IMG/VR virus record: IMGVR_UViG_3300036832_001149
Location: 11,535-75,534 of that record
Reading direction: 5' to 3' (one strand)
From: a virus
Length of the DNA: 64,000 nucleotides
The notes under the pieces were generated by a model. It worked only from the letters and a program-made list of their open reading frames with translations, did not search any database and was not told the origin of the DNA. Positions 35,706 to 52,967 of the stretch are shown here, piece by piece (the stretch's first letter is position 1; each line of letters opens with the position of its first letter). The position numbers and the translations under genes were made by a program.

Positions 35706-38700
35706 ATGAGCACGATGGCCAAGCGCAAGCCGGTCCGGCTGGACCACCACCACTTCGGCGAGTCGCCGGACGACCCCACCTTCAACATCGACGCCGCCCG
35801 CCAGTCCCACGCCGATGTGATGCGGCGCTGGGACGACCCGGTCGAGGGGGACGACTTCAAGGCGCTGATGCTGCACACCATCCAGAACGCCACCGCCGTG
35901 CAGATCGAGAAGCACCGGGCCGACATCCAGGCGTTCCTGGACGCCTTCGGGGCCACCCAGAAGGAGACGGTGGGCAAGGCCATCGTCAAGGCGTATGTGG
36001 CCAACTCGGTCAGCGCCGCCCGGGAGTTCGGCATCAAGGACGCCGGACAGCAGTTCGGCAAGGACTCCGCCTGGGATGAGAGCAAGTGGACGCGCAACCA
36101 CGGCCAGTTCAGCAGTTACCGGGGCGGCCGGGTGGGTCAGAAGCTGTCCGACCGACGCTTCGAACCGGCCGCCACCGGGGCTGATCTCGGCTACGGCAGT
36201 CAGGGGCGCAGCTACGACGAGCACCTGCGCCAGCAGGCCCTGTTGGCCCAGGCCGCCCGCATCGGGGCGGCGGCCGGGAGCCGGGAACAGGAGGTGCTGT
36301 ACCGGATCAAGGACAAGAAGGGCAACGTCCGCGACGTGGTCCCGGGCAAGGGCCAGGTGCCCAAGCTCAAGCGCGGCGAGCGGCTGCTCGGCCCCCGGGG
36401 CACCGGCATCAAGGGCGACGACCTGACGATGAACGACGTCGGCTTCAACCTGATCCAGGCGCTGGGCGTCCCGGCCGAGAAGGCCCGGCGGTCGGTCGAT
36501 GCCGCCGGTCGCACGGTGGGTGCGGGCAGCGACTTCGCCACCGAGTGGAACAACCACGCCAACGCCAATTACGGCACCGAGAAGGGCGCGGCCTACCACA
36601 ACATCAAGGCCGGGGCCGATGCGCTGCAGGCCATCGCGGGCGGCAACCCCAAGGCCCAGGTGGCCATCACCGTCGGCAAGTGGGTCGGCACCCACGGCCC
36701 GGAGGCGGAGAAGGTGCTCGGCCCGCACGCCCGCAAGACGGCCTACAAGTACCGGGGGGTCGAGCGGGCCGCCCGGGACCTGCCGATCCGGCAGGGCGGC
36801 ATGACCGACCGGGACTACCACGACCGGCTGGTGGCCAAGATCGCGGGCAACATCCCCTCGGCCGGGGTGCACGCGCTCAACCTGGCCTCGGGCCACACCG
36901 CGCCCAGCCACGGCTACCTGATCAACGACAAGGGCAAGGTCATCACCGAGGCGCACGGCTACGGGGACGACCACTACCTGCCGTTCAAGCTCTCCGTGCT
37001 GAACCGGATGCGGGGCGGCTCCTACATCCGCACCCGCTCGACCGGGGGTCCCACCACCGAGGACATCTACGCCACCGCGATCAGCGGGGGCACCGGGTTC
37101 ACCGTGGCCAGCCGCCAGGGCACCTACGAGGTGGCCTTCGACTCCGACTTCACCCACCACAAGCGCTTCGGCGACATCGCGCTGGGGATGAGCAAGCGCT
37201 ACGGCAAGATCCTGGACGCGGTGTCCAGCGGCAAGGTGGTGGCCAAGGGCGAGGTGACCGACAAGCAGTACCAGGACTGGGTCGTCAAGGGGATGGAGCA
37301 GTTCGAGCACGACCCCAACCAGTTCCAATTGGCCCACGACTACGCCAAGGGGCTGGCCGAGCAGCAGGAGAGCAAGCACGGCCGCCCGCTGTCCCTCGAC
37401 GGCGAGGGCTACGAATACGCGCTGAAGGCGTTGCACAGCCAGTACCCGTACTACATCGCCAGCACGGCCTACACCCGGCCCAACGACCAGCGGTTCTGGG
37501 ACATCAGCGGCGAGGACGGGCACATCGCCCGGATCGGCAGCAGCCACGAGCGGGACACCGGCTACGTCAAGGCCCGGCACATCAAGTCGGCCGACGCCCT
37601 GGTCGGTTACTACGACCCGAGCATCGCCGGGGAGTCCAAGGGCCCCACCGGCCAGCCCACCGGCTCGGGCAAGGTGAGCGGCGACCTGGCCCACTACGCC
37701 AACTGGCGGCACAACCCCTACAACGCCGACAGCCCGGCAGCCCGCAAGGCCCAGGGCGAGGCGGACCGGCGGTCCCGGGAGCAGGCCGAGGCCCAGGCCC
37801 GACACGCGGCCGAGAACCGGGCCCAGCACGGTGCGACCGGCGGGGTCGGGTCCAACACCGTCCAGCAGGGCAGCCAACTGCGCAACACCGGCCAGGGGGC
37901 GGGCCGGGTCAGCCTGGCGACCGGGCTGGACGCCCGGGGCCAGCGGCTGATGGACATGGTCAAGGCGGTGCACACGTACCGCACCCAGCACGGCCAGGGG
38001 GTCGGGGCCGAGATCGTGCAGTGGCACGCCAACCCCGACGCCTTCGCCCAGGACTACGCGGCCAACCCGAACAAGGTCGAGGCCCAGGTGATGGAGCGGT
38101 ACAACCGGCTGCCGGGCAACCCCACCTCCATCTCGCTGCGCCAGCACCCGGACGAGGAGGTGGACACGAGGATGAACCAGGCCGACGACGAGTGGGCGAT
38201 GAATGAACTGCGCAGCCACCTGCAGACGCCCGAGTCCCAGGACATCCGGGAGGCGCTGGCCGAGACGGGCGGGGTGATGTACCACGAGGACCCGGACACG
38301 CATGTCGACGCCGACCCGGCGGCGCGGTGGGACGCCTATCACTTCGTGCTGCCCCGACAGGACCTGTTGAACCGGGCGTTCGAGGACGTCGAGGACCCGG
38401 GCGAGAAGGCGGGGCTGATCCACCGGGCCAACGAGATGATGGACAAGGAGCTTGAACTGGACCAGATCGAGCAGAACAACGAGGTTCCCTACGAGGACAA
38501 GTGGAACCCGGAGGATGCCGACTACGAGGCCGAAGGAGAACCGAAGGAGGCGCACATCCCGGGAATCAGCCATGAGCAGGCGCGGGCGCTGCAGGTCTCG
38601 GCCGTGGGCAGTGCCCTGACCCAGGTCGCCGACGCCCACCGCCTGGAAAAGCCCACCGGGGCGGGCATCGAGGACCTGGACGACCGGCTGCGGTGGGAGA

Positions 38701-39041
38701 AGCAGCGGGCGGCCCTGAACAACCACATCGCGGCCTGGGAGGAGAACCCGATGGACGAGGATGACTACCGGGATGCCGTGTTCGGCCTGGGGACGTTGCT
38801 GAAGGACCCGACCACGGCCGACCTGGGTGGCTATGAGGTGGACCTGCCGGGCGGGCGGGCCACCCTGAGCCAACTGCACCGGGGCCTGGCCCTGACGGCC
38901 GAGCAGAAGCGCCACGGCCTGGGCAAGCGGTACACGGTCGTCAAGCGCACCCCTCGGTACCGCAGCACGGGCTGGAGTGCCCGGCCAGCCGTGCTCAAGG
39001 TGCGGGTGAAGCGGACCGGGGTGAAGGAAAGGACACGGTGA
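35706..39041 (+). CDS. large multidomain putative internal virion (polyvalent-like) protein
   Basis: 1111 aa between portal and MuF; WDESKWTR..GQF motif; degenerate JAB-like segment. Confidence 0.8.
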   Translation: MSTMAKRKPVRLDHHHFGESPDDPTFNIDAARQSHADVMRRWDDPVEGDDFKALMLHTIQNATAVQIEKHRADIQAFLDAFGATQKETVGKAIVKAYVANSVSAAREFGIKDAGQQFGKDSAWDESKWTRNHGQFSSYRGGRVGQKLSDRRFEPAATGADLGYGSQGRSYDEHLRQQALLAQAARIGAAAGSREQEVLYRIKDKKGNVRDVVPGKGQVPKLKRGERLLGPRGTGIKGDDLTMNDVGFNLIQALGVPAEKARRSVDAAGRTVGAGSDFATEWNNHANANYGTEKGAAYHNIKAGADALQAIAGGNPKAQVAITVGKWVGTHGPEAEKVLGPHARKTAYKYRGVERAARDLPIRQGGMTDRDYHDRLVAKIAGNIPSAGVHALNLASGHTAPSHGYLINDKGKVITEAHGYGDDHYLPFKLSVLNRMRGGSYIRTRSTGGPTTEDIYATAISGGTGFTVASRQGTYEVAFDSDFTHHKRFGDIALGMSKRYGKILDAVSSGKVVAKGEVTDKQYQDWVVKGMEQFEHDPNQFQLAHDYAKGLAEQQESKHGRPLSLDGEGYEYALKALHSQYPYYIASTAYTRPNDQRFWDISGEDGHIARIGSSHERDTGYVKARHIKSADALVGYYDPSIAGESKGPTGQPTGSGKVSGDLAHYANWRHNPYNADSPAARKAQGEADRRSREQAEAQARHAAENRAQHGATGGVGSNTVQQGSQLRNTGQGAGRVSLATGLDARGQRLMDMVKAVHTYRTQHGQGVGAEIVQWHANPDAFAQDYAANPNKVEAQVMERYNRLPGNPTSISLRQHPDEEVDTRMNQADDEWAMNELRSHLQTPESQDIREALAETGGVMYHEDPDTHVDADPAARWDAYHFVLPRQDLLNRAFEDVEDPGEKAGLIHRANEMMDKELELDQIEQNNEVPYEDKWNPEDADYEAEGEPKEAHIPGISHEQARALQVSAVGSALTQVADAHRLEKPTGAGIEDLDDRLRWEKQRAALNNHIAAWEENPMDEDDYRDAVFGLGTLLKDPTTADLGGYEVDLPGGRATLSQLHRGLALTAEQKRHGLGKRYTVVKRTPRYRSTGWSARPAVLKVRVKRTGVKERTR

Positions 39042-39060
39042 ACAAGGAAGGAAAATGGCA

Positions 39061-39093: not shown

Positions 39094-39371
39094 GATGAAA
39101 TCGGACATCCCCCTCCGTGGAAAGGAGTAGCTCATGACCTCAGCGGTGTCGAGATCATCTTCTCTTGATCTGGATGAGGGCCTCGCGGGCTCGTCCCTCT
39201 TCCAGCCCTACGATCCGATGAATCTCTTCTCCCCTGATGTCCTGGCATCTCCTTCCACTACCCCCTCCGGGCAACGACCCTTTGTTTCCGGGCCTAGTTC
39301 AGTCGCTCGACACCACCACAACGAAGCGCTGATTGCATCAGCCCTTCTCCTTGGTGCTGTCTCGCTCCTTC
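39061..39371 (-). ncRNA. candidate ~310-nt structured ncRNA (RNA-C)
   Basis: TGT-TAGAGT -10 at 39375-39383; long-range stems; terminator at 39061-39093. Confidence 0.55.
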
Positions 39372-39505
39372 ACCACTCTAACAAACGAGATAAAGAAATA
39401 TCACAGGTTTCTGTGATTCCTGGCATCCGGGGGTCACAAATTGGTAACAGTTCTGCACCACTGAGTTTCTACCTCAACTCGGCGGCGTGGTTACGCGGTG
39501 CGGTA

Positions 39506-40969
39506 ATGGCCGATACCGCCACCCAGATGGCCTCGGTACTGCCCGGAATACTGCAGCCAGCCGCCCAGGCTGGCATCAAGTTGGGTATGGATGCTTTGTT
39601 CCGCCACACCCTTGGCGGTGGCCTTCCCGCTGCACAACGCAGAGAACTGGCCAACTCCACCAACCTGGTCTCCCGGACCTGGCTGCACCGCTATGCGGCC
39701 CAACTGGGGAAAGGAGTCGGAGAGGCATCCGCTGACGGGCTGTTGGTCTCGCTGTCCACGCTGCAGCGCAGTTCCCTGACCGAAGACCTGGCCTGGCGGG
39801 TACTGCATTCAGCGGCCGGACTACCACCGGGTCAGAGTGTCTCCGTGCTGCGGGTGGCCCAGAATCGGCTGAACACAGCGCTGAACACCCGTAAGCCCAT
39901 CACTCCGCTAGATCTCGGTCAGGATGTCGGCCAACTGCTGCTGGCGCGCCGGGCGCGCCTGATCGCAGACAACGAGTCCGTCGTGGCCCGCAACTTCGGT
40001 ACCCAGTTGCTGCTGATGAACGCGGTCAAGCAGGGCTACCTGCCCGCCGATGCCAAGAAGGTATGGGTCACCGCTGTGGATGAACGGGTCTGCCCGGTCT
40101 GCGCTCCGATGGACTCGGTGGCGGTGGGGATCGAGGAGTCCTTCACCGTCCGCCCGCATAGGGGAGTGCTGAGCCATGAGGTCCGGCTGTGGGTGCCACC
40201 GGCCCATCCGCTGTGCCGCTGCCGCATCGTCCCGGAACGGGCCATCGAACACGGCATCATCACCCGCACCGCGCGGTTCAGCCGCACGGATGGGAGGGCC
40301 CGGCTCACCAGCCGACTGGATGACCTGGTGGCCCGTCACACCACTCCGGGCTGGATGGACTCCGAGGTCGACAAGGGCTGGTCCCAGGCACTGCACCCGC
40401 GTTCCACCTCAGGCAAGTTCATCGTGGCCGGGGCTGTGGTCGGCGCGGTCGCCGCTCGTGAGCTTGCCGATCTGCGCCGTATCCAGTTGCAGACCAAGCA
40501 GGGCTACGCGGTGTCCTCCGGCTTCGTGCCGCGCAAGCGCTATCGCACCATTCGGGGCATCAGCGACGCCCCGGCCGGAACGGTGATCACCCAGGCCAAC
40601 CATCCCGAAGGCACCTACCTGGTGTCCTCCGCCGCGCTGCGCAACTACCGGTTCTCACCGGCCCGGCGGCCCGAGGGACACATGGAGCATCTGACCGAGG
40701 CGATGCGGCGACAGGGTTTCACCCAGCCGATCCAGATGCGGATCTACAGCGGCGATTCCCCGCGCGCCGCCGAGGTGTGGGACGGTCATCACCGCCTGTC
40801 GGTGGCTGACCAATTGGGCATCAAGGCGGTTCCGGCCACGGTGGTGCATGTCGATGAGCCGCCATTCCGGCCGACCAAGGTGTTGCACGTCTGGCGGATC
40901 ACCCATCAACGTTGGCATGGGCGCACCCTGGCGCATGCAGCAGTGACCGGACAGACCAAGGAGGCTTGA
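39506..40969 (+). CDS. MuF-like minor capsid protein fused to a C-terminal ParB/Srx-like domain (alternative start 39134)
   Basis: KVWVT..DERVCPVC...PPAHPLCRC; HPRSTSGKF; GFTQPI...DGHHRL..A..LG...VP. Confidence 0.85.
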   Translation: MADTATQMASVLPGILQPAAQAGIKLGMDALFRHTLGGGLPAAQRRELANSTNLVSRTWLHRYAAQLGKGVGEASADGLLVSLSTLQRSSLTEDLAWRVLHSAAGLPPGQSVSVLRVAQNRLNTALNTRKPITPLDLGQDVGQLLLARRARLIADNESVVARNFGTQLLLMNAVKQGYLPADAKKVWVTAVDERVCPVCAPMDSVAVGIEESFTVRPHRGVLSHEVRLWVPPAHPLCRCRIVPERAIEHGIITRTARFSRTDGRARLTSRLDDLVARHTTPGWMDSEVDKGWSQALHPRSTSGKFIVAGAVVGAVAARELADLRRIQLQTKQGYAVSSGFVPRKRYRTIRGISDAPAGTVITQANHPEGTYLVSSAALRNYRFSPARRPEGHMEHLTEAMRRQGFTQPIQMRIYSGDSPRAAEVWDGHHRLSVADQLGIKAVPATVVHVDEPPFRPTKVLHVWRITHQRWHGRTLAHAAVTGQTKEA

Positions 40970-40972
40970 TAC

Positions 40973-42373
40973 ATGGATGCCAGTGACGCGGTGGCCACCC
41001 TGCACCGGATCGATCCCGATTTCCGGGACATCTGCGCGGCGTTGTATCCCGGCCTGGAGCCGCGCGAGGTGGCCGATGCCGTCTACGGTGTTGCCACCAA
41101 CGGCGGCGTAGCCAAGGGCGAACCGGACAGTGCTGACGTGCATGTGCCGACGACCAACTGGCGCAACGGTCGTGGTCACACCAAGGGCCGGGGTCGACGC
41201 AAGATCGACACCGACGTGACCTCCACCCGGTTCGTAGCCAAGGCCGTCACCTCGACCATGCCCGGTCAGACCAACCACTCCGGCGCGGCCCGCAAGATCG
41301 GTCTGGCCACCACGGCGGTCGGCACCGGCATCAGCGCGGTGTCGCTGCCCAAGCACCTCAAGCACCTGCCCGCCGCGATGAAGAACGCCAAGACCGGCCC
41401 CAGTGTGGGCGAGGGCATCAAGAGTTCGGTCCGGGCGGTGCGACAGTTCTCCAAGCCCGAGGGCGACTCGGCCCTCAAGGGCACGGCCGGGGCGGTGAAG
41501 GCCGGGCTGAACGTCGCCCGGGAGAACCCACGCATCAGTGCTGGGCTGCTGCTGGGGGCGACCGCCGTGCACACGGCCAACCTCGGTGGTGAGGCCATCG
41601 CCACCCACGTGCTGCACAGTGGCGGGACGAAGCCGCCCACGATCGACCAGCCCGACATCCACAAGTCGTGGGCCACGGCCCAGGCGATGTTGGTGCAGGC
41701 CAACCGAGCGGGCCTGATCACCAAGGCCGAGGCGCTGCGGCTGGGTCGGGCCGTCTACACCGACCTGGCCAAGACCGACGGCCACGAGATCATCTCCGGC
41801 AACCTGAAGCTGACCCAGTTGAAGGCCCCGCCGCCGGTGAAGGTCGACCAGCCCAAGCTGTCCCCGACCCGCATCGGGCTGCCCAAGCCGGGCAAGTCCG
41901 GCGCGGGATCGTCCGGCAAGACCAGCAACAAGAGCGTGAAAAAGAGCGAGCCGTCCATCGAGATGTCCGGTGAGATCTCCAAGCTCAACGAGGACAAGCA
42001 GCAGTGCTTCGGCTGGTGCAGCGTGGTCAAGGTCGACGGCAAGGACGTCGTGGACAAGCAGAACGACCTGATCGACATCGACGACCTGGAGACCTCGGCC
42101 TACGACTACATGCTCACCTCGCGCAAGGGCGGCGACATGCACCGGCGCGCCTCCGACGGCGGGGTGCACCACGTGGCCGACGTGATCGAGTCCTTCGTGC
42201 TGACCCCGGAGAAGATCTCCAAGATGGGCCTGCCTGACAATATGCAGCAGGGCTGGTGGATCGGCATGCAGGTGCACGACGACGGGCTGTGGGACGACGT
42301 GAAATCGGGCCGCAAGCGGAGGTTCTCCGTGCACGGGACCGGGAAGAGATCCGAGGTGTTGGTCGATGCGTGA
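40973..42373 (+). CDS. capsid maturation protease (XkdF-like S78) with long N-terminal extension
   Basis: FGWCSV...DKQND.I...GDMH...ESF...GWWIG...WDDVKSG...FSVHG. Confidence 0.85.
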   Translation: MDASDAVATLHRIDPDFRDICAALYPGLEPREVADAVYGVATNGGVAKGEPDSADVHVPTTNWRNGRGHTKGRGRRKIDTDVTSTRFVAKAVTSTMPGQTNHSGAARKIGLATTAVGTGISAVSLPKHLKHLPAAMKNAKTGPSVGEGIKSSVRAVRQFSKPEGDSALKGTAGAVKAGLNVARENPRISAGLLLGATAVHTANLGGEAIATHVLHSGGTKPPTIDQPDIHKSWATAQAMLVQANRAGLITKAEALRLGRAVYTDLAKTDGHEIISGNLKLTQLKAPPPVKVDQPKLSPTRIGLPKPGKSGAGSSGKTSNKSVKKSEPSIEMSGEISKLNEDKQQCFGWCSVVKVDGKDVVDKQNDLIDIDDLETSAYDYMLTSRKGGDMHRRASDGGVHHVADVIESFVLTPEKISKMGLPDNMQQGWWIGMQVHDDGLWDDVKSGRKRRFSVHGTGKRSEVLVDA

Positions 42374-42731
42374 TGCGTTCGGGGTGGAACGACCCGACCT
42401 GGACGGAGTAGCCAAGGCGGCCTACAAGGACAGCAACCAGACGCTGTCCGGTCCCGGGAAGGCGGCCGTCACCGGTGGGGCCGGTCTCACGGGGGCGGGC
42501 GGTGGACTGCTGCACGGTGGATACAAGACGGTCCAGCGGACCAAGTGGGCCGGTCAGCCCCAGGCCCATCTGGCCAACGGGGTCAAGCTGATGCCCAATC
42601 CCAGCCACCCGGACGTGGCCGCACTGCGGTTGGGCCGCCAGGCGGTACGCGGCGGGGCGGCCACCACCGCCCTCGGCGTGGGTCTGGGTGCGGCCGGGCT
42701 GGCCCGGGGCTGGCAGCGCAAGAACCGGTAG
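42366..42731 (+). CDS. putative internal head cargo protein (DAFGV leader, Gly-rich hydrophobic helices)
   Basis: MRDAFGVERPDLDGVAKA; GxxxG helices; basic C-terminus. Confidence 0.7.
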   Translation: MRDAFGVERPDLDGVAKAAYKDSNQTLSGPGKAAVTGGAGLTGAGGGLLHGGYKTVQRTKWAGQPQAHLANGVKLMPNPSHPDVAALRLGRQAVRGGAATTALGVGLGAAGLARGWQRKNR

Positions 42732-42740: not shown

Positions 42741-42830
42741 ATGACCGAGATTCAGGGCTGGTTCCTCGTGGTCGAGGTCGGCATCATCGCGTTGGCGGTG
42801 CTGCTCGGGGACCGCTGGCCGCGCCGATGA
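42741..42830 (+). CDS. 29-aa single-TM peptide
   Basis: AGGAGG RBS; MTEIQGWFLVVEVGIIALAVLLGDRWPRR. Confidence 0.6.
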   Translation: MTEIQGWFLVVEVGIIALAVLLGDRWPRR

Positions 42831-43273: not shown

Positions 43274-43446
43274 CCGAGCCCGGCGTCGACCAGCAGCAGT
43301 TCACCACCGCCACGCCCCAGTCCGTGCCGGTCGCGGTGGTCATAAAGCCCTCCGGACCGCCGCCGGTGATCACCTTCCCGACCGGGTCCGAGCCGCCGCT
43401 GGCCGGGATCGCCAACGGCACCCTGCTGGTCGAGTACACCCCGTGA
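43270..43446 (+). CDS. small virion protein
   Basis: ATGA overlap. Confidence 0.6.
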   Translation: MTEPGVDQQQFTTATPQSVPVAVVIKPSGPPPVITFPTGSEPPLAGIANGTLLVEYTP

Positions 43447-43456
43447 AGGAGATGCC

Positions 43457-44002: not shown

Positions 44003-44029
44003 TCGACCCCACCCGAAAGGGGTGAGACA

Positions 44030-47000
44030 GTGGCTTCTTTGGATGACCGTTCGATTTTTGGTGTCCGTTCGATCACCCCCTCGGCGACCCCCGGTGGGGA
44101 TGGCGGGCCACTGACGAACACGGTCCCGTCGATCGTTACCAGCGACAAGCTCGTCGCGTTCTGCCTCATCGACGACAATCTGCCGCTGTCCGCCCCGGTG
44201 AACGCGGGCTACACGTGGGTGCCACTGGGACCGCAGGTCGGTCCTACGACCACCGGCCCCAGCGGCGGCGTCAATATGGCGGCGTTCCTCTGCGCCGCGC
44301 CCGCTGCCGGGTCCAACGTCGTGTTCACCCACGGGTCCGGTTCGGGCGGCGACGACAAGGTCCAGAGCATCTGGGTGCTCATCGGGGCCGGGGCGGTCGA
44401 TGCCGTTGCCAGTACGACGGATGCGGTGGCGACGCCCGGTAGCGCGCTGGCCCCGTCGGCCAACCCGACCACCGTGGGCGACATCCTGATATGCGCGATC
44501 GAGTTGGACGCAGGCCAGGTGACCGTCGTTCCTCCGGCCGCCATGACGGCCGGGGCACCGGTCAAGAACGACTACCTCTCCTACGGCGACGCCTACAAGA
44601 TTCTGTCCTCGTCCGGCGCGACCGGGACCCAGGCGTTCTCCGGCGTGACCGCCGGGCAGCATTACAACGCACTGAGCATCACCATCGCCTCGGCCGCCGC
44701 CGCCTCCGCCCTCACCACCCGGGCGACGACGTGGAACGTGGCGTCCACCACGACGACGGTGTCCACCACCCGCACCACCAACTGGGCGGTGGTGGCCGGG
44801 CCGGTGGCCGCCTACAACTTCAACGAGGGCACCGGCACCACCTCGGTCGACTGCACCGGCAACGGCCACACCGCCACCGTCAAGGCCGGGGCCTGGGTCA
44901 CCGGCCACACCGGCACCGGCATCGGCAGCATCGCCAACGCGGCCACCGCCATGCCGTACCCGAGTGTGCCGAACACGTTCACGATGATGTGCTGGGTCCA
45001 GTTGACCGGCTACGGCTGGGCCGCCTGGATCAGCAACAACGGCGGGTCGAGCGGCCTGTCGGTCTTCCTGCAGGCCGATCCGTCCGGCACGCCCTACTTC
45101 GGCACGTACTACGGCGAGGCGCACACCACCACGCCGATCCCGCTCAACACCTGGACCCACCTGGCCGGGACGTGGGACGGGTCCCTGCTGAGGTTGTTCG
45201 TCAACGGTGTGAACGTCGCCTCGGGGCCGATGAACGCGAACGCATCCGGCTTCTTCTCGCCCGGACAGACGTTCACCCTCGGGGTCGGGGCCAACCTGAT
45301 CCAGGACGACACCCGGTTCTTCGCCTTCGACCTGTCGGCGGCCGACATCGTCGCCTACATGAACACCCCGGTCGCGCCACCGGTCGTGACGGCGCGGGCC
45401 AGCCGGTCCACCACCTGGAACGTGGCCTCCGGCCTCACCACGGTCGGCGGCGTCACCCGCGCCACCACCTGGAAGATCGCCGGGCGGGCCACCGTCCAGC
45501 GGGCGACCTCCTGGAGCCTGATCGGCCTCAACCCCTTCGCCAAGTCGGTGCACCCCAGCGGGCGCTACCTGCTCGACCAGTTCGGCCAGCCCTACTTCGT
45601 CCTGGGTGACGGGCAGTGGACGATGCCATCGCGGATACTGTCCGCGAGTGACCGGGCGACGTACTGGACCAACCGGGCGGCCAATGGGTTCAACTGCGTC
45701 CTGATCGACGTCATCGACGGGCCGGGCAAGTTCAACCCGACCTCGGACCCCAGCCATTACCTGACGTTCGCCGGTGACTACCCGTTCGGCGGGGTCAACC
45801 ACGACGACATCACCAGCCTCACCCCGTCCCACTGGAACCGGATCGACACCATCGTCAACGAGGCCGAGGCGGCCGGGAACACGGTGTGGCTGGTTCCCAC
45901 CAACGGCCAGGACATGATCGCCACCCTGAACAACGCCGGGACGGCGAACTGCCAGGCCTACGGGGTGCTGCTGGGCAACCGGTACAAGAACAAGACGAAC
46001 CTCATCTGGCTGTTCGGCGAGGATTACACCCCGACGACCCAGGCCGACGCCTCGCAACTGGCCGTCATGGCCGGTATCCGCAGCACCGGCGACACCCACC
46101 TGTCCTCCATGGAGATGTTCAACATGTTCTCCATCTCCTCGGACTGGACCCACTACCCCGGGAACATCAACATCAACTGGGTCTACTCCTACCCGGCGGT
46201 CTACTCCGAGACCCGGCTGGCCTACGCGGCCAATGCCGGACCGACCCTGATGGGCGAGTCGGCCTACGAGAACGAGTGGTCCTCCACGGACCTCACCCAC
46301 CACAAGGAGATGGGCTGGGCCCTCACCTCCGGGGCCGCCGCCGGGTTCATCAAGGGCAACAACCCGTGCTGGAACATCCACTTGGCCGGTCCCAGCGGCG
46401 GTCCCAACGGACCGTGGACGAACATCACCAACACCAACGTCGACATCGCGTTCGGCAAGCTCAAGGCCTGGTACACCGGCCTGATCGGCTGGTTCCGGCT
46501 GGCCCCGGACCTGGCCAACACCTTCCTCACGGCCGGGATGGGCGTGAAGAAGGACACCAGTACCTCCACGACCAACGACGACTCCGACTACGGCACGGCG
46601 GCGCTGGCGACCGATCGCTCGTTCGGGCTCATCTTCGCCCCGGCCAACCGGGACCTCACGGTGGACACGACCCAGGTCAACGCGGTCTCCTCGACGTCCT
46701 GGGTCGACGCCAGCAACCCGCAGCACACCGTGGCCGCCCCCTCGACCGGGACCCCCACCGCCACCGTGTTCGCCTACCCGGGGTTGAACCAGAACGGCGA
46801 CTACGCCTGGTACCTGCTCATCCAGGGCGTGCCCCTGGTCCAGGTCACCACCAGTCGGGCCACCACCTGGACGGTCCGGACGTCGGTCGGGGTGAGCCGG
46901 TCCACCATCTGGAACGTCAACGCCACGCTGGTCCATGTCACGATCAGCCGGGCCACCACCTGGACCGTCGCCGCCGCCACGACGGTCCCGGTCACCACCA

Positions 47001-47257
47001 GCCGGTCGACCACCTGGACCGTCCGGACGCCGGTCTCGGCCAACCGGACCACCACCTGGACGGTCCGCACGTCGGTCCCGGTCACCCGGATGACCTGGTG
47101 GAAGGTCGCCTCGACCAGGATCGCCCTGGGATCGGTCGTCATCGACGGGGTGCGCACGCCGGTGGCCAGCCTGGGGGTGGTCATCGACGGGGTGAACAAG
47201 CCGGTGGTCAACCAGTGGGTCGTCAGCGGCGGGGTGAAGAAGGCGGTCGTCGGCTGA
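44030..47257 (+). CDS. large virion glycan-binding/hydrolase protein: LamG-like plus DUF4038 (GH140-like) glycosidase, RATTW repeats
   Basis: AAYNFNEG.GT..D..GNG; WTHLAGTWDG; GRYL.DQ.G.P.F.LGD..W; NLIWLFG.D; PTLMGESAYE. Confidence 0.8.
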   Translation: MASLDDRSIFGVRSITPSATPGGDGGPLTNTVPSIVTSDKLVAFCLIDDNLPLSAPVNAGYTWVPLGPQVGPTTTGPSGGVNMAAFLCAAPAAGSNVVFTHGSGSGGDDKVQSIWVLIGAGAVDAVASTTDAVATPGSALAPSANPTTVGDILICAIELDAGQVTVVPPAAMTAGAPVKNDYLSYGDAYKILSSSGATGTQAFSGVTAGQHYNALSITIASAAAASALTTRATTWNVASTTTTVSTTRTTNWAVVAGPVAAYNFNEGTGTTSVDCTGNGHTATVKAGAWVTGHTGTGIGSIANAATAMPYPSVPNTFTMMCWVQLTGYGWAAWISNNGGSSGLSVFLQADPSGTPYFGTYYGEAHTTTPIPLNTWTHLAGTWDGSLLRLFVNGVNVASGPMNANASGFFSPGQTFTLGVGANLIQDDTRFFAFDLSAADIVAYMNTPVAPPVVTARASRSTTWNVASGLTTVGGVTRATTWKIAGRATVQRATSWSLIGLNPFAKSVHPSGRYLLDQFGQPYFVLGDGQWTMPSRILSASDRATYWTNRAANGFNCVLIDVIDGPGKFNPTSDPSHYLTFAGDYPFGGVNHDDITSLTPSHWNRIDTIVNEAEAAGNTVWLVPTNGQDMIATLNNAGTANCQAYGVLLGNRYKNKTNLIWLFGEDYTPTTQADASQLAVMAGIRSTGDTHLSSMEMFNMFSISSDWTHYPGNININWVYSYPAVYSETRLAYAANAGPTLMGESAYENEWSSTDLTHHKEMGWALTSGAAAGFIKGNNPCWNIHLAGPSGGPNGPWTNITNTNVDIAFGKLKAWYTGLIGWFRLAPDLANTFLTAGMGVKKDTSTSTTNDDSDYGTAALATDRSFGLIFAPANRDLTVDTTQVNAVSSTSWVDASNPQHTVAAPSTGTPTATVFAYPGLNQNGDYAWYLLIQGVPLVQVTTSRATTWTVRTSVGVSRSTIWNVNATLVHVTISRATTWTVAAATTVPVTTSRSTTWTVRTPVSANRTTTWTVRTSVPVTRMTWWKVASTRIALGSVVIDGVRTPVASLGVVIDGVNKPVVNQWVVSGGVKKAVVG

Positions 47258-47319
47258 ACAGACACCCCCGGCACACTTAGAGCGCAAGGAGGCGTGATGC
47301 CGACCCACCAGGACACCCC

Positions 47320-47667
47320 ATGACCAGCCCGGCCACCACCGTCACCGCGCTGCCGATCGAGGTCGATCTCGTCCTCTATCAGGGCGACGACTTCTACCTC
47401 GACCTGATCGTGTCCAACCCGGACGGCACCGACGCCGACCTGTCCACCGCGATCGCCACGGCCGAGATCCACACGAACACCGCCACCACCACCCCGCTGG
47501 CCGTGTTCAACGCCACCATCATCGGCAACGTGATCCATCTGCACCTGCCCAGCGGCGAGTCGACCAATCTCACCGCCCCGGGCGTGTGGGACTGCCAGAT
47601 CGCCACCCCCGACATCACCACGCTGGTGGCCGGGAGGGTCACCCCCACCGCCGAGGTGACCCGATGA
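47320..47667 (+). CDS. beta-sandwich fibre adaptor
   Basis: [14 protein letters not shown]...GVWDCQI...[14 protein letters not shown]. Confidence 0.75.
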
Positions 47668-49823
47668 ACGAGGGATATCAGGTCTCGGCCGAGACCACTC
47701 AGCCCTACCAGGTCGCCACCGCCACCCGGGCCGCGTCCACCGTCGCCGCCAGTGGCAGTGGCCCCCAGGGTGAACAGGGACCACCGGGTCCGGTCGGCCC
47801 CCAGGGACCACAGGGCACTACCGGGAACACCGGCCCGACCGGCAGCACCGGCCCCCAGGGCGTCCAGGGGCCCACCGGGGCCAAGGGCAATACCGGCAGC
47901 GCCGGGCCGGTTGGCAGCACCGGTCCAACCGGCAGCACCGGGCCGCAGGGTGGCTCGGGGGTCCAGGGCATCCAGGGGATACCGGGCCTGGCCGGTCTGG
48001 TCCCCAACATCCAGATATTCACCGTCAATGGGAACTCCACCTGGACCAAACCGGCCAACGCGGTCACCGTGGACGTGTTCCTCATCGGCGCGGGCGGCGC
48101 TGGTGGTGGTGGCGCGAAGACGACCGCCGGGACCGCCTGCTCCGGTGGTGCGGGTGGCGCGTCGGGCGGCATCAGCATGGCCACGTTCCAGGCTTCGGAC
48201 CTACCGGCCACGGCGACGGTCGGCGTCCGCGCCGGTGGCACGGGCGGTGTCGGCGCGACTGCCGTCGGCTCGGGTGGGACCGGATCAACCGTCGGCAACT
48301 GCACGTGGTTCGGGCCGGACGTAAACAGTTACAACTCCTGGCTCCAGGCGCGCCAGGGTAGCTCCGGTGGCGGTGGTCTGATCAACACCGTGGCGACGGG
48401 CGGCATCATCCAGCCCGCCAGCGGCACCGAGCAGGTGAGCGTTGCGGGTCAGTCATCCGGCAACGGCGCGGCGTTAGCGCCCGGGATCGCGTATCCGGGT
48501 TGCGTACCCGGATCGGCGGGCGCTGGTATCGCCGCAGCAGGCAGCGTGTTCATCGCCGGTGGCTCTGGCGGCGTAACGATCTGGGCGCAGCAGGGTCCGG
48601 CAGCCGCAGCCGGTGGCGCGACGGACGGCGCGAGCGGGGCCAACTGGACCCTGGCCAGCCCGGGTGGACCCGGTGGCGGTGGCGGGGGTGGGGCGTCGAG
48701 CATCGCCGGGAACGGTGGTAACGGCGGTAGCGGCGGCTACGGTTCCGGTGGGGCCGGGGGCGGGTCCTCCATCGGCGGGAACGGCGGGAACGGCGGGAAC
48801 GGCGGTGGCGGCTTAGCCATTATCACCGCGTGGTGCACCCAGTCCTCAGCCGCAGGCAATCCGGGTCCGACCGGCCCGGCTGGACCACAGGGTGCGACTG
48901 GCCCGACCGGACCTGCGGGTGCCACCGGTCCACAGGGCAATGCTGGTCCCACCGGGTCAACGGGGCCAGCGGGGCCTGCCGGATCGGCACCACAAATAAC
49001 GGCCTACACGGTTGCTGGCTCGTTCACGTACAACATTCCGACCGGCACAACGTTGCTCGACATTCAGTTGGGCGGCCCCGGTGGTGGCGGTGGGTCCGGT
49101 GCCTGCACGGCCAGCGGGACGGCTTGCAGCGGCGGCAGTGGTGGCGGTGGTGGTGGGTACTCGCATCGCCTCATCCCCGTTGCATCGCTTAGTTCAACGA
49201 CGCTCAACGTGTACACGATGGCGGGCGGGGCAGGTGGCGCGGCGCAATCGACCGCGAGCGCGACCGGACTACCCGGGTCGAACGGTGTGGGGAACTGCTC
49301 TGTCCGAGCCGGGGGCCTGTATCTGACCATCGCGACCCCCGGTCAGGGCGGGCCCGGTGGCGTCATCAATGGCACAGCCGCTTCGGCAGCGGGTGGATAT
49401 GGTTCTGACTACCAATCGACAGCAGGCGCGGCGGCTCCGGTCGGCGGAACCTCCGGACGCCAGTCCACCTCGTTCGGGTGCGCGGCGGGTGGGGCTGGGG
49501 CCGGACTCGCTGCCGCGCCGGTCGGGCTCGTCGGGACGGGTGGCGGGTGTGGGGCCGGAACATCGCCCGCGAGCAGTGGTGGAGCCCCGGGTGTAGCCGG
49601 TGGAGGCAATGCTGGAATACCCTCGCCCGTCATTTGGATCGGTCCCGGCGCTGGCGGCGGTGGCGGTGGCTCGAACGCGGCTGGGACGGGTGGAGCGGGC
49701 GGAAGTGGTGTCTATGGCGGCGGCGGCGGCGGTGGCGGCGCGTCGCTCAACGGGTCACTGTCTGGAGCGGGAGCACCGGGCGCTGATGGTTGGTGTCTCA
49801 TCACGGCCTACGGTGCCCCGTAG
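47664..49823 (+). CDS. collagen-like, glycine-rich fibre protein
   Basis: two Gly-X-Y blocks, each followed by a glycine-rich domain. Confidence 0.85.
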
Positions 49824-49859
49824 TGATCGCAGAAGCAGCATGACGAACGGAGAAGACCG

Positions 49860-50129: not shown

Positions 50130-50188
50130 CAATGACACCGCTGGGCTGAGCAGACAGTCCTAGCACACTGGTCACCAAGGAGGTGCAG

Positions 50189-51235
50189 ATGCCGTTTGCC
50201 AGCAAGGCCCAGGCGCGGTACCTGCATGCCCGGCACCCGGGCATCGCCGCCCGCTGGGAGAAGCACACCCCGGCCAAGAAGCGCCGCGCGCTGCCCGAGC
50301 ACGTCGGCAAGGCGGGGGAGACCAAGGTCCAGCGCTATCAGCGCCACCAGCGCCAGGCTGCCGCCGCCATCACCGCCACCACCGCCATCCCGGCCCTGCT
50401 GGCGCTGCGCTCGGGTCGGATGGCCACACTGGCCGGGGCGGGCACGGCCGAACATGCGCTGCACTCCGGCACGCAGTTGCGCCACGCGGCCACCGCGACC
50501 GGGCTGGGCGGCCTGGCCGGGGCGACCAACGCCCTGCCCACCCCGAAGCGGTTTCTCCAACAGAACAAGCACAATCAGGCCCCGAAGAAGCCAGCCGCCT
50601 CGGGCTATGTCAAGACTGGTATCACCGCCAAGCGGGACACAACGGAAGTAGGTAGGGCAATGACGTACATCGACGCTTTCGGAGTGGCTCGGGACGACCT
50701 GGTCGCCAAGGCCGACAAGAAGAATGCGACATCGGGCCGGTTGGCCACCGGAGCACTGTTCCCCGGGGTCCACGGGGCCGTCGCCGGGAAGCCCGGGAAG
50801 AAGCTGAAGGCGGCCGGGACCGAGTTGGGGATCGGACTGGCCGGGGGGATGCTGGGGCACGCCATCCACCCGGCTGCCGCCACGGCCGGTAACCTCGTCG
50901 GGGCGGCAGCCGGGACCAACATCGCCCACAACCAGGGCTACCTGAAGCCGCAGAAGACCAGGGTGATCAAGGCCAACCGGAAGACCCCCTCGGTGGGCCG
51001 GTTGGCCACTGGTGGGGTCTTCCCCGGCTTCCATGGGGCGGTGGCGGGCAAGCCGGGCCAGTACCGCAAGTTGAAGGCGGCCGGGACCGAACTCGGTTCG
51101 TCCACGCTCGGGAGTGCGGTCGGGCATGCCGTCGGCGGTCCGGTGGGCAGTTCGGCCGGGAACCTGGCCGGAGCGGTGGGCGGCACCGCCATCGCCCACA
51201 ACCAGGGCTGGCTGAAGCGACAGAAGAAGGCGTAG
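50189..51235 (+). CDS. putative head cargo polyprotein (MPFxSxAQ domain plus tandem glycine-zipper repeats); possible internal start at 50660
   Basis: AAGGAGG RBS; two ~85-aa repeats each preceded by VxKA. Confidence 0.75.
   Translation: MPFASKAQARYLHARHPGIAARWEKHTPAKKRRALPEHVGKAGETKVQRYQRHQRQAAAAITATTAIPALLALRSGRMATLAGAGTAEHALHSGTQLRHAATATGLGGLAGATNALPTPKRFLQQNKHNQAPKKPAASGYVKTGITAKRDTTEVGRAMTYIDAFGVARDDLVAKADKKNATSGRLATGALFPGVHGAVAGKPGKKLKAAGTELGIGLAGGMLGHAIHPAAATAGNLVGAAAGTNIAHNQGYLKPQKTRVIKANRKTPSVGRLATGGVFPGFHGAVAGKPGQYRKLKAAGTELGSSTLGSAVGHAVGGPVGSSAGNLAGAVGGTAIAHNQGWLKRQKKA
50701..51232 (+). repeat. two tandem ~260-nt repeats encoding glycine-zipper peptides
   Basis: GRLATG..FPG.HGAVAGKPG..KLKAAGTELG...AGNL.GA..GT.IAHNQG.LK twice. 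Confidence 0.85.
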
Positions 51236-51238
51236 GAG

Positions 51239-52147
51239 ATGAGCCCCATCCCTGATGCGTTCAAAGAACACGCCGGACGCCATCACTTCACCCCCGACGC
51301 GCCGAGCGCCAAGGCCGCCCAGAAGAAGCACGCCGGTCGCTTCCACCCGGACTTCGTGCGCCACATCGGCGCGCACACCTTCGACGGCAAGGACTCCAAG
51401 GAATCCAAGGACTCTCCGAAGAAGTCGAAGGACCCGAAGGACGACGGCGACACCGGTCGGTTCGTGTTTCCGGCCAAGAAGGGGCACAAGAGCAAGCCCC
51501 GGCGTCCGGCCGCGTTCTCCGAGACTGGCATCGGCAAGTTCGGTCCGTCCGGTTCCGGGTACCAGCGGCCGAAGCAGAGTCCCGGGCAGGTGGGCGCGAG
51601 CGTGGGCGGGGCCGTCGCCGGGTTGGCGTCGGAGAAGGTGCGGCCCGGCTCGACCGCTGCCGGTCACCTGATGCGCAGCACCAACCTGCCCAAGCTGGCC
51701 GGTGGGATGGGCGCGGGCCATTACACCCCCGGAACCCCGAGGAACTTCGGCAGTCCCACGCTGGGCACCTCGGCCACCGGGGCGGCCGTCCACGCCTTCC
51801 GCCAACCGGCGGCCGAAGGGGCGGCGGCGGGCACGCTGCCCAAGCTGGGCCGGGCGGCCGGTGCCTTCGCCCGGGGCATTCCGCGCTCGCCCGGGGCGGC
51901 CGTCGTCGCGGGCGGGACGCTGGCCGGGGCCGGGATCGGCGCGGAGGTCAGCCACCACCGCAAGCAGAAGCAGCAGTCGTTCAACCCGTACCTGGCCAAG
52001 GGCTTCCACCCGAAGGCGCGCCCGGCGGTCGTGGCCCCGGTGGTGCCCGAGGTCTGGGACCGGCCGTCGTGGGACATGGTCCCGCTGCGCACGGTGGACG
52101 GAATCCCGGACAACCAGCACGGTTCCTACACCGAGCGGTTCGGGTGA
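51239..52147 (+). CDS. putative head cargo protein (basic, Gly/Ala-rich)
   Basis: AGGAG RBS; IGK and LAK sites; hydrophobic GxxxG helices. Confidence 0.7.
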   Translation: MSPIPDAFKEHAGRHHFTPDAPSAKAAQKKHAGRFHPDFVRHIGAHTFDGKDSKESKDSPKKSKDPKDDGDTGRFVFPAKKGHKSKPRRPAAFSETGIGKFGPSGSGYQRPKQSPGQVGASVGGAVAGLASEKVRPGSTAAGHLMRSTNLPKLAGGMGAGHYTPGTPRNFGSPTLGTSATGAAVHAFRQPAAEGAAAGTLPKLGRAAGAFARGIPRSPGAAVVAGGTLAGAGIGAEVSHHRKQKQQSFNPYLAKGFHPKARPAVVAPVVPEVWDRPSWDMVPLRTVDGIPDNQHGSYTERFG

Positions 52148-52178
52148 CAAGACAGCCCTTGCCAGAATGGGGAGCGAG

Positions 52179-52967
52179 ATGAAGCGAGTCAACAAGCTCA
52201 GCAACATGGCGATCGACGAGGTATCCCTGGTCGATTCGGACGCCAATGGCTACGCCGAGATGCTTATCGCAAAACGGGACACGACGGAGGAGCAGATGCC
52301 CGAAAACGAAGATGAACTGACCTTCTCCGAGGACGATCTCGTCTACGACGACGCGGGGAACGCCTACCTGCCGATCCAGGTCGGTGACGACGGTGGTGGG
52401 GACGGTGAGGGGCCGGAGTACTACGTCGAGGACGACGACGACGATGCCGAGGCCGAGGACACGTCCCAGAAGGTGTTGGCCAGCCTGTCCAAGGCCCTGG
52501 GCGACTCCGACCGGGACCAGGTGGTCGCCTCGGCCTACGGGCAGATCGCCAAGGCGCAGAAGCGGGCCGAGCGGGCCGAGCAGGTCGCCAAGGCCGAGCG
52601 CGACCTGCGGCTGACCCGGGAGTACATCGCCAAGGCCGAGCAGTACAGCCTGCCGGTCCCGGCCGAGGTGCTCGGGCCGGTGCTCAAGCGCTGCACCGAG
52701 TCGCTGAGCAAGCAGGACTGCGAGATCCTGGCCCAGTGCCTGGACTCGGCCAGTGAGGCCGGGTACGACCCGTACGCCGAGATCGGCAAGTCCGGCGGCG
52801 GGGCCAACAGCGACATCCTCACCCAGGTCGGTGCCTACGCCGACGACCTGTTCGCCAAGTCGGTCGAGGCGGGCACCGGCTTCACCCCGGAGCAGGCTGT
52901 GGCCAAGGTGTTCGAGGCGAATCCGGCCGCCTATGACCAGTACCTCGCCGAGCGGCGCGGACGCTGA
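52179..52967 (+). CDS. scaffolding protein with N-terminal protease-like strand; internal start at 52296 likely
   Basis: IDEVSLVDSDAN; acidic linker; coiled coil; C-terminal NPAAYDQY; upstream of decoration and MCP genes. Confidence 0.8.
   Translation: MKRVNKLSNMAIDEVSLVDSDANGYAEMLIAKRDTTEEQMPENEDELTFSEDDLVYDDAGNAYLPIQVGDDGGGDGEGPEYYVEDDDDDAEAEDTSQKVLASLSKALGDSDRDQVVASAYGQIAKAQKRAERAEQVAKAERDLRLTREYIAKAEQYSLPVPAEVLGPVLKRCTESLSKQDCEILAQCLDSASEAGYDPYAEIGKSGGGANSDILTQVGAYADDLFAKSVEAGTGFTPEQAVAKVFEANPAAYDQYLAERRGR

Follow-up and report, generated by a model that had tools for sequence, protein, structure and literature searches.

The shared peptide in the head module

What does it mean that otherwise unrelated proteins in a phage head module share one short peptide, and that hydrophobic-x-Lys triplets ([VILF]xK) stand next to it? 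The question is raised by a 64-kb window, the whole stretch of DNA analysed here, from the 75.5-kb genome of a high-GC phage. The answer that we favour, with a probability of roughly 60%, is that the module encodes a load-then-clip system, in which the peptide would be a tag that loads cargo into the procapsid and a prohead protease would remove it. The features on which the question first turns are the following (a slash marks the predicted junction).

33950..35698, + strand: Mu-like portal protein (Pfam Portal_Mu, E=6.6e-29; phrog_113, E=7.5e-89)
35706..39041, + strand: 1111-aa head-module protein, with DAFGATQKETVGKA at 35940-35981
39134..40969, + strand: MuF-like minor head protein with a ParB-N-like domain (Phage_Mu_F, ParB_N)
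41075..41116, + strand: tag-like peptide of the protease, DAVYGVATNGGVAK48 (DAVYGVATNGGVAKG at 41075), from an alignment of 12 proteases
42366-42731, + strand: p121, which begins M-R-DAFGVERPDLDGVAKA
42366..42416, + strand: N-terminal tag of p121, residues 1-17, ending VAK17/A
42417..42731, + strand: predicted mature p121, 104 aa, pI 11.7, 38% Gly+Ala
50183-51235, + strand: p350, with MTYIDAFGVARDDLVAKA from an internal ATG at 50660
50183..50311, + strand: N-module of p350, residues 1-43, ending VGK43/A
50633..50710, + strand: internal tag of p350, residues 151-176, pI 4.8, between TAK150/RDTTE and VAK176/A
50711..51232, + strand: tandem cargo units of p350, residues 177-263 and 264-350, from self-alignment

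Every peptide quoted in an earlier note on this DNA was located at its position. In this phage the tag takes the form DAFGVxRxDL, the general core being [DS]AFGVx[RH]. DAFG occurs just three times over the six frames of the window, each time within a genuine ORF of the head module and with V[AG]KA after it. With the strict core set as the 7-mer [DS][AP]F[GE][VI]x[KRH] and the expectation taken from codon-block shuffles, the whole 75.5-kb genome holds two copies, at the N-terminus of p121 and inside p350, against 0.095 expected. The tags are acidic (pI 4.4-4.8) and the predicted mature pieces have a pI of 10.6-11.7. The start of p121 overlaps the protease stop and has GAGG upstream; the in-frame ATG at 50660 in p350 is preceded by an SD-like purine run in rare codons.

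The earlier note had regarded the motif as common to p121, p350, the protease and the 1111-aa protein. Strict copies are indeed present in p121 and p350, and the protease has a looser version that is conserved, being the local form of a clade-wide REVA[DE]LLFGGGxDEL[IV]SK. The copy in the 1111-aa protein, which matched nothing in Pfam, PHROG or the Atlas, stands apart from them: it fails the strict 7-mer, homologues with 42-64% identity read DDFG, NDWFG or NRLH at that place, and this DAFG is probably there by chance. The next residues, [LV]xKA, are conserved, reading LSKA, LAKA or VAKA in the homologues. The neighbouring MuF-like protein matches Phage_Mu_F slightly below the cut-off (E=2.4e-6, 28.7 bits; cut-off 29.6) and ParB_N also below it (E=8.6e-4), and PHROG head-morphogenesis and ParB-like families match this protein as well.

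Conservation and modularity in related loci

With the portal protein, the anchor of the head module, as bait, 274 related viral loci were collected. Conservation of the motif in homologues, which had been proposed as a check, was found: the tag is present again in the two closest relatives, where it sits both on homologous proteins and on different ones, and in most relatives it reads M-x-SAFGV[DE]HG, a variant carried by more than 100 distinct proteins of the larger clade. The relatives hold 112 distinct N-terminal leaders, many of common ancestry, so that such large counts are not counts of independent events. Across 1.04 Mb of related loci there were 48 motif matches, all on the portal strand, and a search of 23 distant MAG and prophage loci gave no matches. 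The clade that carries the tag is entirely uncultured.

The peptide behaves as a module. It sits on different proteins in this phage and in the relatives L082 and G001, and its carriers include bodies as unrelated as Gly-zipper-like proteins, an HExxH protein and a GNAT acetyltransferase, the last scoring 28.3 bits against a cut-off of 20.7. C-terminal and internal copies are also present, with the hydrophobic-x-Lys facing the protein body, and L082 and G001 have internal tags homologous to that of p350. The same cargo unit bears the tag on its N side in this phage and in L082 and on its C side in L028, where the p350 cargo unit is found ahead of a C-terminal tag.

Linkage to the head module was assessed with 60 loci retrieved solely through the DNA pattern of the tag and 60 non-tag control loci. 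The major capsid protein (MCP) was present in 41 of the tag-retrieved loci, against 2 of the 60 controls (p = 1e-14); a scaffold was found in 35 of the former and the protease domain in 18. Taken together, these sequence comparisons support the DAFGV peptide as a real, conserved and modular tag linked to the head module. The earlier reading of DAFG as a tag holds to this extent, although the core may equally be a recognition element of the protease.

Hydrophobic-x-Lys at module boundaries

Next to the tag, the triplet follows a simple rule. A [VILF]xK lies at most 13 residues after the tag in 111 of 113 distinct N-type tags, the background rate being 0.15, and the same span contains [VILF]xR in 13 of the 113 and [VILF]xE in 3. 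Of the 112 leaders, 106 have Ile or Val at P3, 72 have Ser at P2, and 76 have Ala, Gly or Ser at P1'. When the tag has a body upstream, the junction site is upstream too (10 of 14 by the strict pattern, p = 2.7e-6), and internal tags have hydrophobic-x-Lys on both sides. These positions support the view that hydrophobic-x-Lys separates the tag from the protein body, on either side.

Within the cargo, [VILF]xK is confined to module boundaries and is not enriched overall. A general enrichment there is absent, since p350 has 3 such sites among 29 Lys, p302 has 4 among 24 and p121 has 1 among 7, the last being VAK17. The three sites of p350 are K43, where the homology of the N-module ends, K176, where the tag ends, and K263, the junction of the tandem units. 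By tblastn, the homology of p350 to L008 and L019-L021 is limited to residues 2-43, and in other phages this N-module is fused to the homologue of the 1111-aa protein. Each of the tandem units, which are basic (pI 10.6 and 11.6), opens with Ala right after a hydrophobic-x-Lys (VAK176, VIK263). The third cargo protein follows p350.

51239..52147, + strand: p302, basic protein, untagged here, containing PDAFKEH and AAFSETGIGK

The module boundaries of p302 are IGK100 and LAK254. Its L082 homologue (3215-4375) opens with a tag, then (STGTGV)x3, VSKG and EIPEAFKQHAGRHHF; homology between the two is confined to residues 4-100 of p302, with K100 at its end, and p302 starts within one residue of the predicted mature N-terminus of this homologue. 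In our phage p302 has no tag, yet it lies in the same cluster as tagged proteins, which we count against load-then-clip. As to the claim that [VILF]xK sites mark module boundaries, it is borne out at the breakpoints of p350, p302, p121 and the protease; FGKD, VDKG and IHKS were matched to no independently defined boundary.

The protease, scaffold and capsid

40973..42373, + strand: protease polyprotein (Peptidase_S78_2, residues 335-460)
41975..42352, + strand: XkdF-like protease domain, with invariant His390 and Ser452 (FS[IV]HG)
52167..52967, + strand: scaffolding protein, acidic, pI 4.2 (phrog_13547, E=2.5e-10)
52984..53382, + strand: small head protein, 132 aa, conserved beside the capsid gene and co-occurring with the MCP in relatives
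53395..54393, + strand: MCP of the lambda E-like family (phrog_1005, E=1.9e-86)

The protease polyprotein opens with a helical domain, followed by the tag-like peptide up to VAK48; a linker that is basic and rich in Gly and Ala then leads to the XkdF-like serine protease domain at the C-terminus. In the AF2 model it is ordered at residues 1-38, 233-268 and 329-455, and the tag-like peptide falls in a disordered stretch just past the helix at 30-38. The PF14550 (Peptidase_S78_2) profile scores 46.7 bits against a cut-off of 24 and is covered from position 5 to 125 of 126. K337, D361, D365, H390, E406, S407, S452 and H454 are invariant columns in 12 homologues, H390 and S452 being the candidate catalytic residues, and K337 belongs to an invariant [IF][SA]K at the start of the protease domain (codon 41981-41983). 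Among 48,161 chains the top structural match was T4 gp21, a moderate one only (Z 6.2, rmsd 3.5, 106 aligned residues), and Foldseek with the protease model returned no matches at E <= 0.001. Judged by sequence, the protease is XkdF-like (PF14550) and not of the T4 gp21 family.

The scaffold, whose true start is 52167, has AKRDTTE in common with p350. The count given for it in the earlier note was confirmed: [VILF]xK accounts for 11 of the 14 Lys (binomial p = 2e-6). In the pooled scaffolds (10 homologues), the residue at -2 is hydrophobic before 119 of 182 Lys (65%), against about 20% for Arg (27/118), Glu (82/381), Asp (55/244) and Gln (22/122). The difference between Lys and Arg has a p of 5e-13, and since the enrichment is confined to Lys, helix periodicity is not its cause. 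The MCP has no N-terminal propeptide, and its alignment with phrog_1005 begins at residue 2.

A load-then-clip proposal and its alternatives

With this in mind, one may propose the following course of events. The short acidic tag would mark proteins destined for the interior of the procapsid; its carriers would be small, very basic Gly/Ala-rich proteins (p121, the p350 units and, in relatives, p302), along with some enzymes in relatives. The tag may dock its carrier onto the assembling core, with the protease, the scaffold or the inner face of the capsid as its candidate receptor. Once the shell is closed, the XkdF-like Ser/His protease would cut after the Lys of hydrophobic-x-Lys, before Ala, Gly or Ser. 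Such cuts would strip the tags and split the modules of the polyproteins, namely p350, p302 and the protease precursor, and the same cuts would fragment the scaffold at about 11 sites, allowing it to exit the shell. The basic mature pieces would remain with the DNA in the head and, by analogy, would probably exit with it at infection.

Other explanations have to be weighed against this one. The motif may serve the prohead protease only, as an extended determinant of recognition or cleavage (P7-P1 = D/S-A/P-F-G/E-V/I-x-K/R/H), with no role in capsid entry; targeting would then be left to other parts of the proteins, or the basic proteins would simply co-assemble with the acidic scaffold. The relatives L015, L028, L030 and L036 have DPFE[VI]xK, with Lys as seventh residue, at module boundaries (five copies in L036), and these sites lack an additional downstream hydrophobic-x-Lys; LPEHVGK/A of p350 is equivalent in position to DPFEVAK/A of L028; and tags with His or Arg at the seventh position have a separate hydrophobic-x-Lys nearby, as expected if Lys alone is cut. 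The DAFGVxR core has a hydrophobic-x-basic end of its own and is similar to DPFE[VI]xK, and may therefore be such a recognition element as much as an address. However, C-terminal copies stop at His or 1-4 residues beyond it (in L009 and L014 exactly at ...SAFGVEH), and as nothing is left to remove past them, the peptide must do more than mark a cut. Moreover, M-x-S and Phe-Gly, at a distance from the scissile Lys, are conserved more strongly than most protease subsites need, and we consider a pure recognition signal unlikely. Still more doubtful is a docking motif that is never removed, with the hydrophobic-x-Lys as part of an epitope for a head-assembly partner such as the scaffold, the portal, the MuF protein or a chaperone. 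A position-independent terminal peptide does resemble the uncleaved cargo-loading peptides of encapsulins, but a Lys site that lies downstream of N-terminal tags, upstream of C-terminal ones and on both sides of internal ones always faces the protein body, which suits a separator more than a component of one epitope. The core and the Lys are also variably spaced (0 to 6 residues apart, about 20 in L082), and the same Lys context dominates the scaffold, a normal substrate of prohead proteases; we therefore hold an unremoved docking motif to be very unlikely.

That the resemblance reflects no shared function at all seems highly improbable to us; it would then be left over from gene duplication among basic proteins of low complexity, or a signal at the nucleotide level, such as a translation start or RNA element, would encode the peptide by coincidence. 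The cargo is of low complexity and partly paralogous, as the tandem units of p350 illustrate, and many tags are at gene starts. Against this, copies are also found at C-termini and inside ORFs and on the unrelated bodies named above, and 47 of the 48 motif matches are in coding-like frames with none on the minus strand. In addition, the tags use all six codons for Ser, from both codon families, and all four each for Ala, Gly and Val, a free synonymous variation that points to selection on the protein and not on the DNA. One may also speculate that the tag serves for docking irrespective of its position and does so by mimicking a prohead-protease substrate or product, an idea that we regard as quite unlikely. 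On this view DPFE[VI]xK would be open to cleavage, SAFGV[DE]H and DAFGVxR would be uncleavable look-alikes, and the C-terminal copies ending ...SAFGVEH mimics of the P-side product. Cargo would enter bound to the substrate groove of the protease, or to a site that holds a similar segment of the scaffold (E[IV]SLVDxGAN; VGK-SAF[FL]), and would be freed once the nearby true Lys site is cut. Were this so, phages would have their own equivalent of encapsulin cargo loading, with the maturation protease as the receptor.

Relation to known systems

The load-then-clip proposal has its closest precedent in T4. There, as summarised in PMC12991175 and PMC9024508, the internal proteins IPI-III and Alt lose a capsid targeting sequence (CTS) to the prohead protease gp21 (Mullaney and Black 1996), which according to the same summaries cuts at I/LxE. 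In both cases a short leader common to otherwise unrelated head-module proteins ends in a hydrophobic-x-charged triplet, which is the protease motif in T4 and the predicted cut site here; small, basic cargo is common to both, and the protease too undergoes processing, as predicted here. The differences are that the predicted P1 is Lys and not Glu, that the leader sequence is another one, that tags here are also at C-termini and inside polyproteins, and that the protease is XkdF-like by sequence, its likeness to the gp21 fold being moderate. The capsid protein here is lambda E-like, the portal Mu-like and the genome 75 kb in size. The principle of capsid targeting would be of the T4 type, with another tag and another protease.

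The head proteins of phiKZ and SPN3US have propeptides that are cut by gp175 and gp245, respectively (PMC10052503, PMC5694885). There, too, a short consensus marks where many head and ejection proteins are trimmed, the propeptides contain multiple motif copies and the protease cleaves itself, as is predicted here; the cut, however, follows Glu, the propeptides are all N-terminal except in protease self-cleavage (PMC10052503), and in these sources no single shared leader sequence is reported, unlike the tag here (PMC10052503, PMC5694885). Phage P1 DarB has an N-terminal capsid localisation signal, a likewise terminal segment that is sufficient for head entry, in a protein delivered with the DNA (PMC9024508). 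It differs in being a feature of one protein, with another sequence, and not a family-wide consensus.

Encapsulin cargo-loading peptides are short, occur at either terminus of diverse cargo, bind to the inside of an HK97-fold shell and stay uncleaved. Position independence is common to them and to the tag; their consensus is another one and their shell a cellular nanocompartment, and the flanking Lys sites argue for removal of the tag. In HK97 itself, the prohead protease gp4 cuts off the delta domain of the capsid protein, and its own C-terminal tail targets it. The likeness lies in a serine protease of assemblin-like fold inside the procapsid that cuts after Lys in its best-known site, as predicted here. 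The N-terminal cleavage in HK97, mentioned in PMC9024508, comprises about 100 residues; the capsid protein of our phage has no such propeptide, and the predicted substrates of its protease are the scaffold and the internal proteins.

The tag in the head module

The tag is a short peptide with the core [DS]AFGVx[RH], and the [VILF]xK between it and the protein body is the presumed cut site. An earlier note on this DNA had proposed such a DAFG...VxK leader for several head proteins, and each peptide it quoted was found where it had been placed. The genes concerned belong to a 75.5-kb contig (viral in IMG/VR, estimated completeness 94%, ~66% G+C), of which the window covers 64 kb.

Head-module genes of the window, in order
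33950-35698, +, Mu-like portal, first in order
35706-39041, +, 1111-aa protein of no known family
39134-40969, +, fusion of a MuF-like protein and a ParB-N-like (DGHHR) domain
40973-42373, +, 466-aa protein, last 130 residues an XkdF-like prohead protease (PF14550, 46.7 bits; cut-off 24)
42366-42731, +, p121
42827-49823, +, fibre-like and Gly-rich genes, a 7.5-kb block between p121 and p89
between the 7.5-kb block and p350, +, p89
50183-51235, +, p350
51239-52147, +, p302
52167-52967, +, scaffold
between the scaffold and the major capsid protein, +, 132-aa head protein
53395-54393, +, lambda-E-type major capsid protein (phrog_1005, E = 2e-86)

Six-frame translation of the window yields three copies of DAFG, each in a real head ORF and each followed by V[AG]KA. 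Two strong copies, at the N-terminus of p121 and in the interior of p350, fit the strict 7-mer [DS][AP]F[GE][VI]x[KRH]. The whole genome contains this 7-mer twice, where shuffling predicts 0.095 copies; the shuffles and frame controls rule out a resemblance by chance. The 1111-aa protein was rejected as tagged cargo. Since its homologues do not keep DAFG, reading DDFG, NDWFG or NRLH, this third copy is probably a chance resemblance. The tag-like copy in the protease represents, in this phage, an N-terminal segment found throughout the clade, REVA[DE]LLFGGGxDEL[IV]SK.

In p350, a gene with 88% GC3, the five successive rare codons GAA GTA GGT AGG GCA form an SD-like purine run (window 50645-50662) directly before an in-frame ATG at 50660. 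This run suggests a nested start, which would render the internal tag N-terminal. A similar GGAAAGG run is present in L082, the closest related fragment; in the relatives G001, L009 and L025, internal tags have no start codon.

Conservation and spread of the tag

Portal and protease searches of IMG/VR gave a collection of 81 related loci. In L082 (capsid protein 91% identical) one tag copy lies within the p350 homologue and a second at the very start of the homologue of p302, a protein that is untagged in the window. There the tag is followed by three exact STGTGV repeats, then VSKG, then the sequence that opens the window p302. This insertion (L082 3215-3330), lying between the tag and the VSKG site, indicates that the spacing from tag to presumed cut is tolerant. 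G001, a complete relative of 80 kb whose portal is 80% identical, carries LDGFGVDRPDLFSKA within its p350 homologue, and MTTLDAFGVDRPDLYGEVEKR opens a different 200-aa protein. The placements in L082 and G001 indicate that the tag is conserved and moves between genes. More distant relatives (portal 50-60% identical) have SAFGV[DE]H, and some of them DPFE[VI]xK.

The 7-mer was matched 48 times across 1.04 Mb of related loci, in every case on the portal strand and never on the opposite one; 47 of the matches are in coding-like frames. No match occurs in 23 distant MAG/prophage loci. When IMG/VR was scanned for the DNA pattern of AFGVDHG, at least 120 stretches matched, and genuine tags are present in 60 loci among the matches listed. 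A homologue of the window's capsid protein accompanies the tag in 41 of these 60, a scaffold in 35 and a protease domain in 18, while only 2 of 60 unrelated pattern matches among those listed have the capsid protein (p = 1e-14). The distinct N-terminal leaders number at least 112 and follow the consensus M-[IELYQ]-S-A-F-G-[VI]-[DE]-H-G-x(0-6)-[IV]-[SEA]-K-[AGS]. Codon use in the motif is free, Ser being written with all six codons, and selection hence acts on the peptide and not on DNA or RNA; a signal at the nucleotide level is ruled out, as synonymous sites vary and Ser comes from both codon families.

No cultured relative with virion proteomics was found: 50,697 phage records gave no match to the 1111-aa protein, the scaffold, p350, an HExxH cargo or a 25-aa leader. 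Arthrobacter phage Laroye and Microbacterium phage ValentiniPuff have the same portal and capsid type and lack the motif. The scaffold query found no match in the host/prophage search, and the portal query in MAGs returned only relatives of at most 51% identity, none with the motif. An Acidimicrobiaceae contig is the nearest of these MAG matches, and high-GC bacteria of soil are candidate hosts. For p350, three matches, itself included, were found among 5.8 billion proteins; the 1111-aa protein had no usable match in the ESM Atlas.

The hydrophobic-x-Lys junction

In 111 of 113 distinct N-type tags, [VILF]xK occurs within 13 residues downstream, compared with 13 for [VILF]xR and 3 for [VILF]xE; over a span of this length, [VILF]xK has a background rate of 0.15. 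Some tags are true C-termini, the next gene beginning in another frame, and end at the His or 1-4 residues later. Where the body lies upstream (C-terminal and internal tags), hydrophobic-x-Lys is found 4-8 residues before the tag, in 10 of 14 cases with the strict pattern (p = 2.7e-6) and in 14 of 14 once the pattern admits Met, Tyr and Arg; internal tags are flanked by it on both sides. One cargo unit, GRLAxGxxxPGxHGAxAGKxGxKL..., stands after the tag in the window phage and L082, and before a C-terminal tag in the related locus L028. A separator between tag and body in either orientation is what a removable address label would need.

A general [VILF]xK enrichment in cargo proteins was looked for and not found. 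In p350 just three of 29 Lys are of this type: K43, the end of homology to the N-module, which in other phages stands free or is fused differently; K176, the tag end; and K263, the junction of two tandem 87-aa units, each starting with Ala after Lys. The IGK100 of p302 is the point where L082 homology ends, and the single site of p121 is the tag end. The heptapeptide AKRDTTE is common to p350 and the scaffold, and the corresponding YAKRD of relatives stands before tags. Residues 255-302 of p302 (window 52001-52147) form a C-terminal module of ~48 aa that begins with Gly after LAK254; it is shared with L082, there beginning with Ala after VGK, and has a conserved VDGIP[DE]xxH. A role as a second assembly element, at the C-terminus, is possible for this module.

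The predicted mature pieces are of 87-154 aa, with a pI of 10.6-11.7 and 33-39% Gly+Ala; the tag peptides, predicted to be excised, are acidic. In relatives the leader is also found on a GNAT acetyltransferase (Pfam 28.3 bits, above cut-off), on a weak Gly-zipper match, and on proteins with an HExxH motif or DGNHR-type segments, seen by eye only.

Leader-tagged proteins of three related loci, upstream of or inside the head module
L012, 1520-1876
L013, 1668-2447
L037, 9114-9926
L037, 19479-21461

This set comprises a GNAT acetyltransferase, two HExxH proteins and a >660-aa protein with two DGNHR/ParB-like segments, and it is possible that they are injected enzymes.

Scaffold and protease

The scaffold has a pI of 4.2, and 11 of its 14 Lys are in [VILF]xK, exactly as the earlier note had counted (binomial p = 2e-6). 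In ten scaffold homologues V, I, L or F occupies position -2 of Lys in 119/182 cases (65%), against 23% for Arg, 22% for Glu, 23% for Asp and 18% for Gln (Lys versus Arg, p = 5e-13). An effect of helix amphipathicity or periodicity should be seen at every charged residue; since Arg, Glu, Asp and Gln show no such bias, this source was rejected, and the bias is Lys-specific. The Lys-specific bias fits degradation of the scaffold by a putative Lys-specific protease.

The XkdF protease family is poorly studied. Here, 40973-42373 contains the whole Pfam domain, and residues 323-454 of the model can be aligned to T4 gp21; a protease split between two genes is not supported. His390 and Ser452 are invariant in 12 homologues, and the [IF][SA]K337 with which the catalytic domain begins is likewise invariant. 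The AF2 model shows an ordered domain, with disorder in the tag-like peptide and the linkers. Among 48,161 chains, gp21 of T4, a prohead protease, gives the top structural match, with a modest Z (6.2); Foldseek with this model gave nothing at E <= 0.001.

A load-then-clip reading

A load-then-clip system like that of T4 is the most economical reading. Its parts would be different ones: a peptide that serves as address, an XkdF-like protease specific for Lys, and internal proteins of basic character. Cleavage, packaging and ejection would be its steps, as predicted for a group in which all relatives are uncultured. The main rival is that the tag core serves only as an extended recognition element of the protease, a view favoured by the DPFE[VI]xK variants; however, the C-terminal copies leave nothing to cut, which argues for a binding role.

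To our knowledge, only T4 and its giant relatives have been shown to load internal head proteins by an address that is then clipped off, and we found no description in the literature of such a system for this kind of phage, or of this motif. The load-then-clip system proposed here would follow the logic of T4 in an unrelated, mid-sized, uncultured lineage, but with a different protease family, a Lys rule instead of Glu, and tags at either protein end. For T4, the literature supports the principle of a capsid targeting sequence (CTS) as leader, with gp21 cutting at I/LxE (PMC12991175, PMC9024508). Propeptides of SPN3US and phiKZ are cut likewise (PMC10052503, PMC5694885), whereas for P1 DarB capsid targeting alone is supported and removal of the signal was not demonstrated (PMC9024508).

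If the load-then-clip reading is true, the tag with hydrophobic-x-Lys would be a simple sequence rule for proteins that travel with the DNA into the host, predicted to include enzymes such as the GNAT acetyltransferase. It would also predict the specificity of the XkdF protease family and provide a compact and portable peptide with which foreign proteins could be loaded into HK97-fold capsids. It also points to capsid-cargo addressing as a general trait that tailed phages have evolved repeatedly.

Other features of the head module

The scaffold has a clade-wide N-terminal segment, IDE[IV]SLVDxxAN (window 52200-52265), and the protease ends with a similar SEVLVDA (42344-42370). This segment could be what remains of a protease-scaffold fusion, or a strand that binds the protease. 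One may also speculate that the tag resembles the E[IV]SLVD segment of the scaffold or the FSxGGFGV of the protease, the register being ambiguous. Scaffolds of SAFGV-type relatives (L021, L025, L015, L030) have VGK-SAF[FL] in an acidic linker, that is, a hydrophobic-x-Lys site and then the first tag residues; it is absent from the window scaffold.

The MuF-ParB-N-like fusion (39134-40969) recalls MuF proteins of temperate phages fused to effector or toxin domains. Two proteins of ~115-150 aa in the 7.5-kb block are paralogues (42827-43273 and 47320-47667). The block also contains a fibre-like protein of 1075 aa, in which 'TTW.V' strands recur, a further protein of 181 aa and a collagen-like/Gly-rich ORF of 745 aa. 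The distance from protease to scaffold in relatives is only 1.5-3 kb, and G001 has its homologue of the small paralogues about 8.6 kb upstream of its portal gene.
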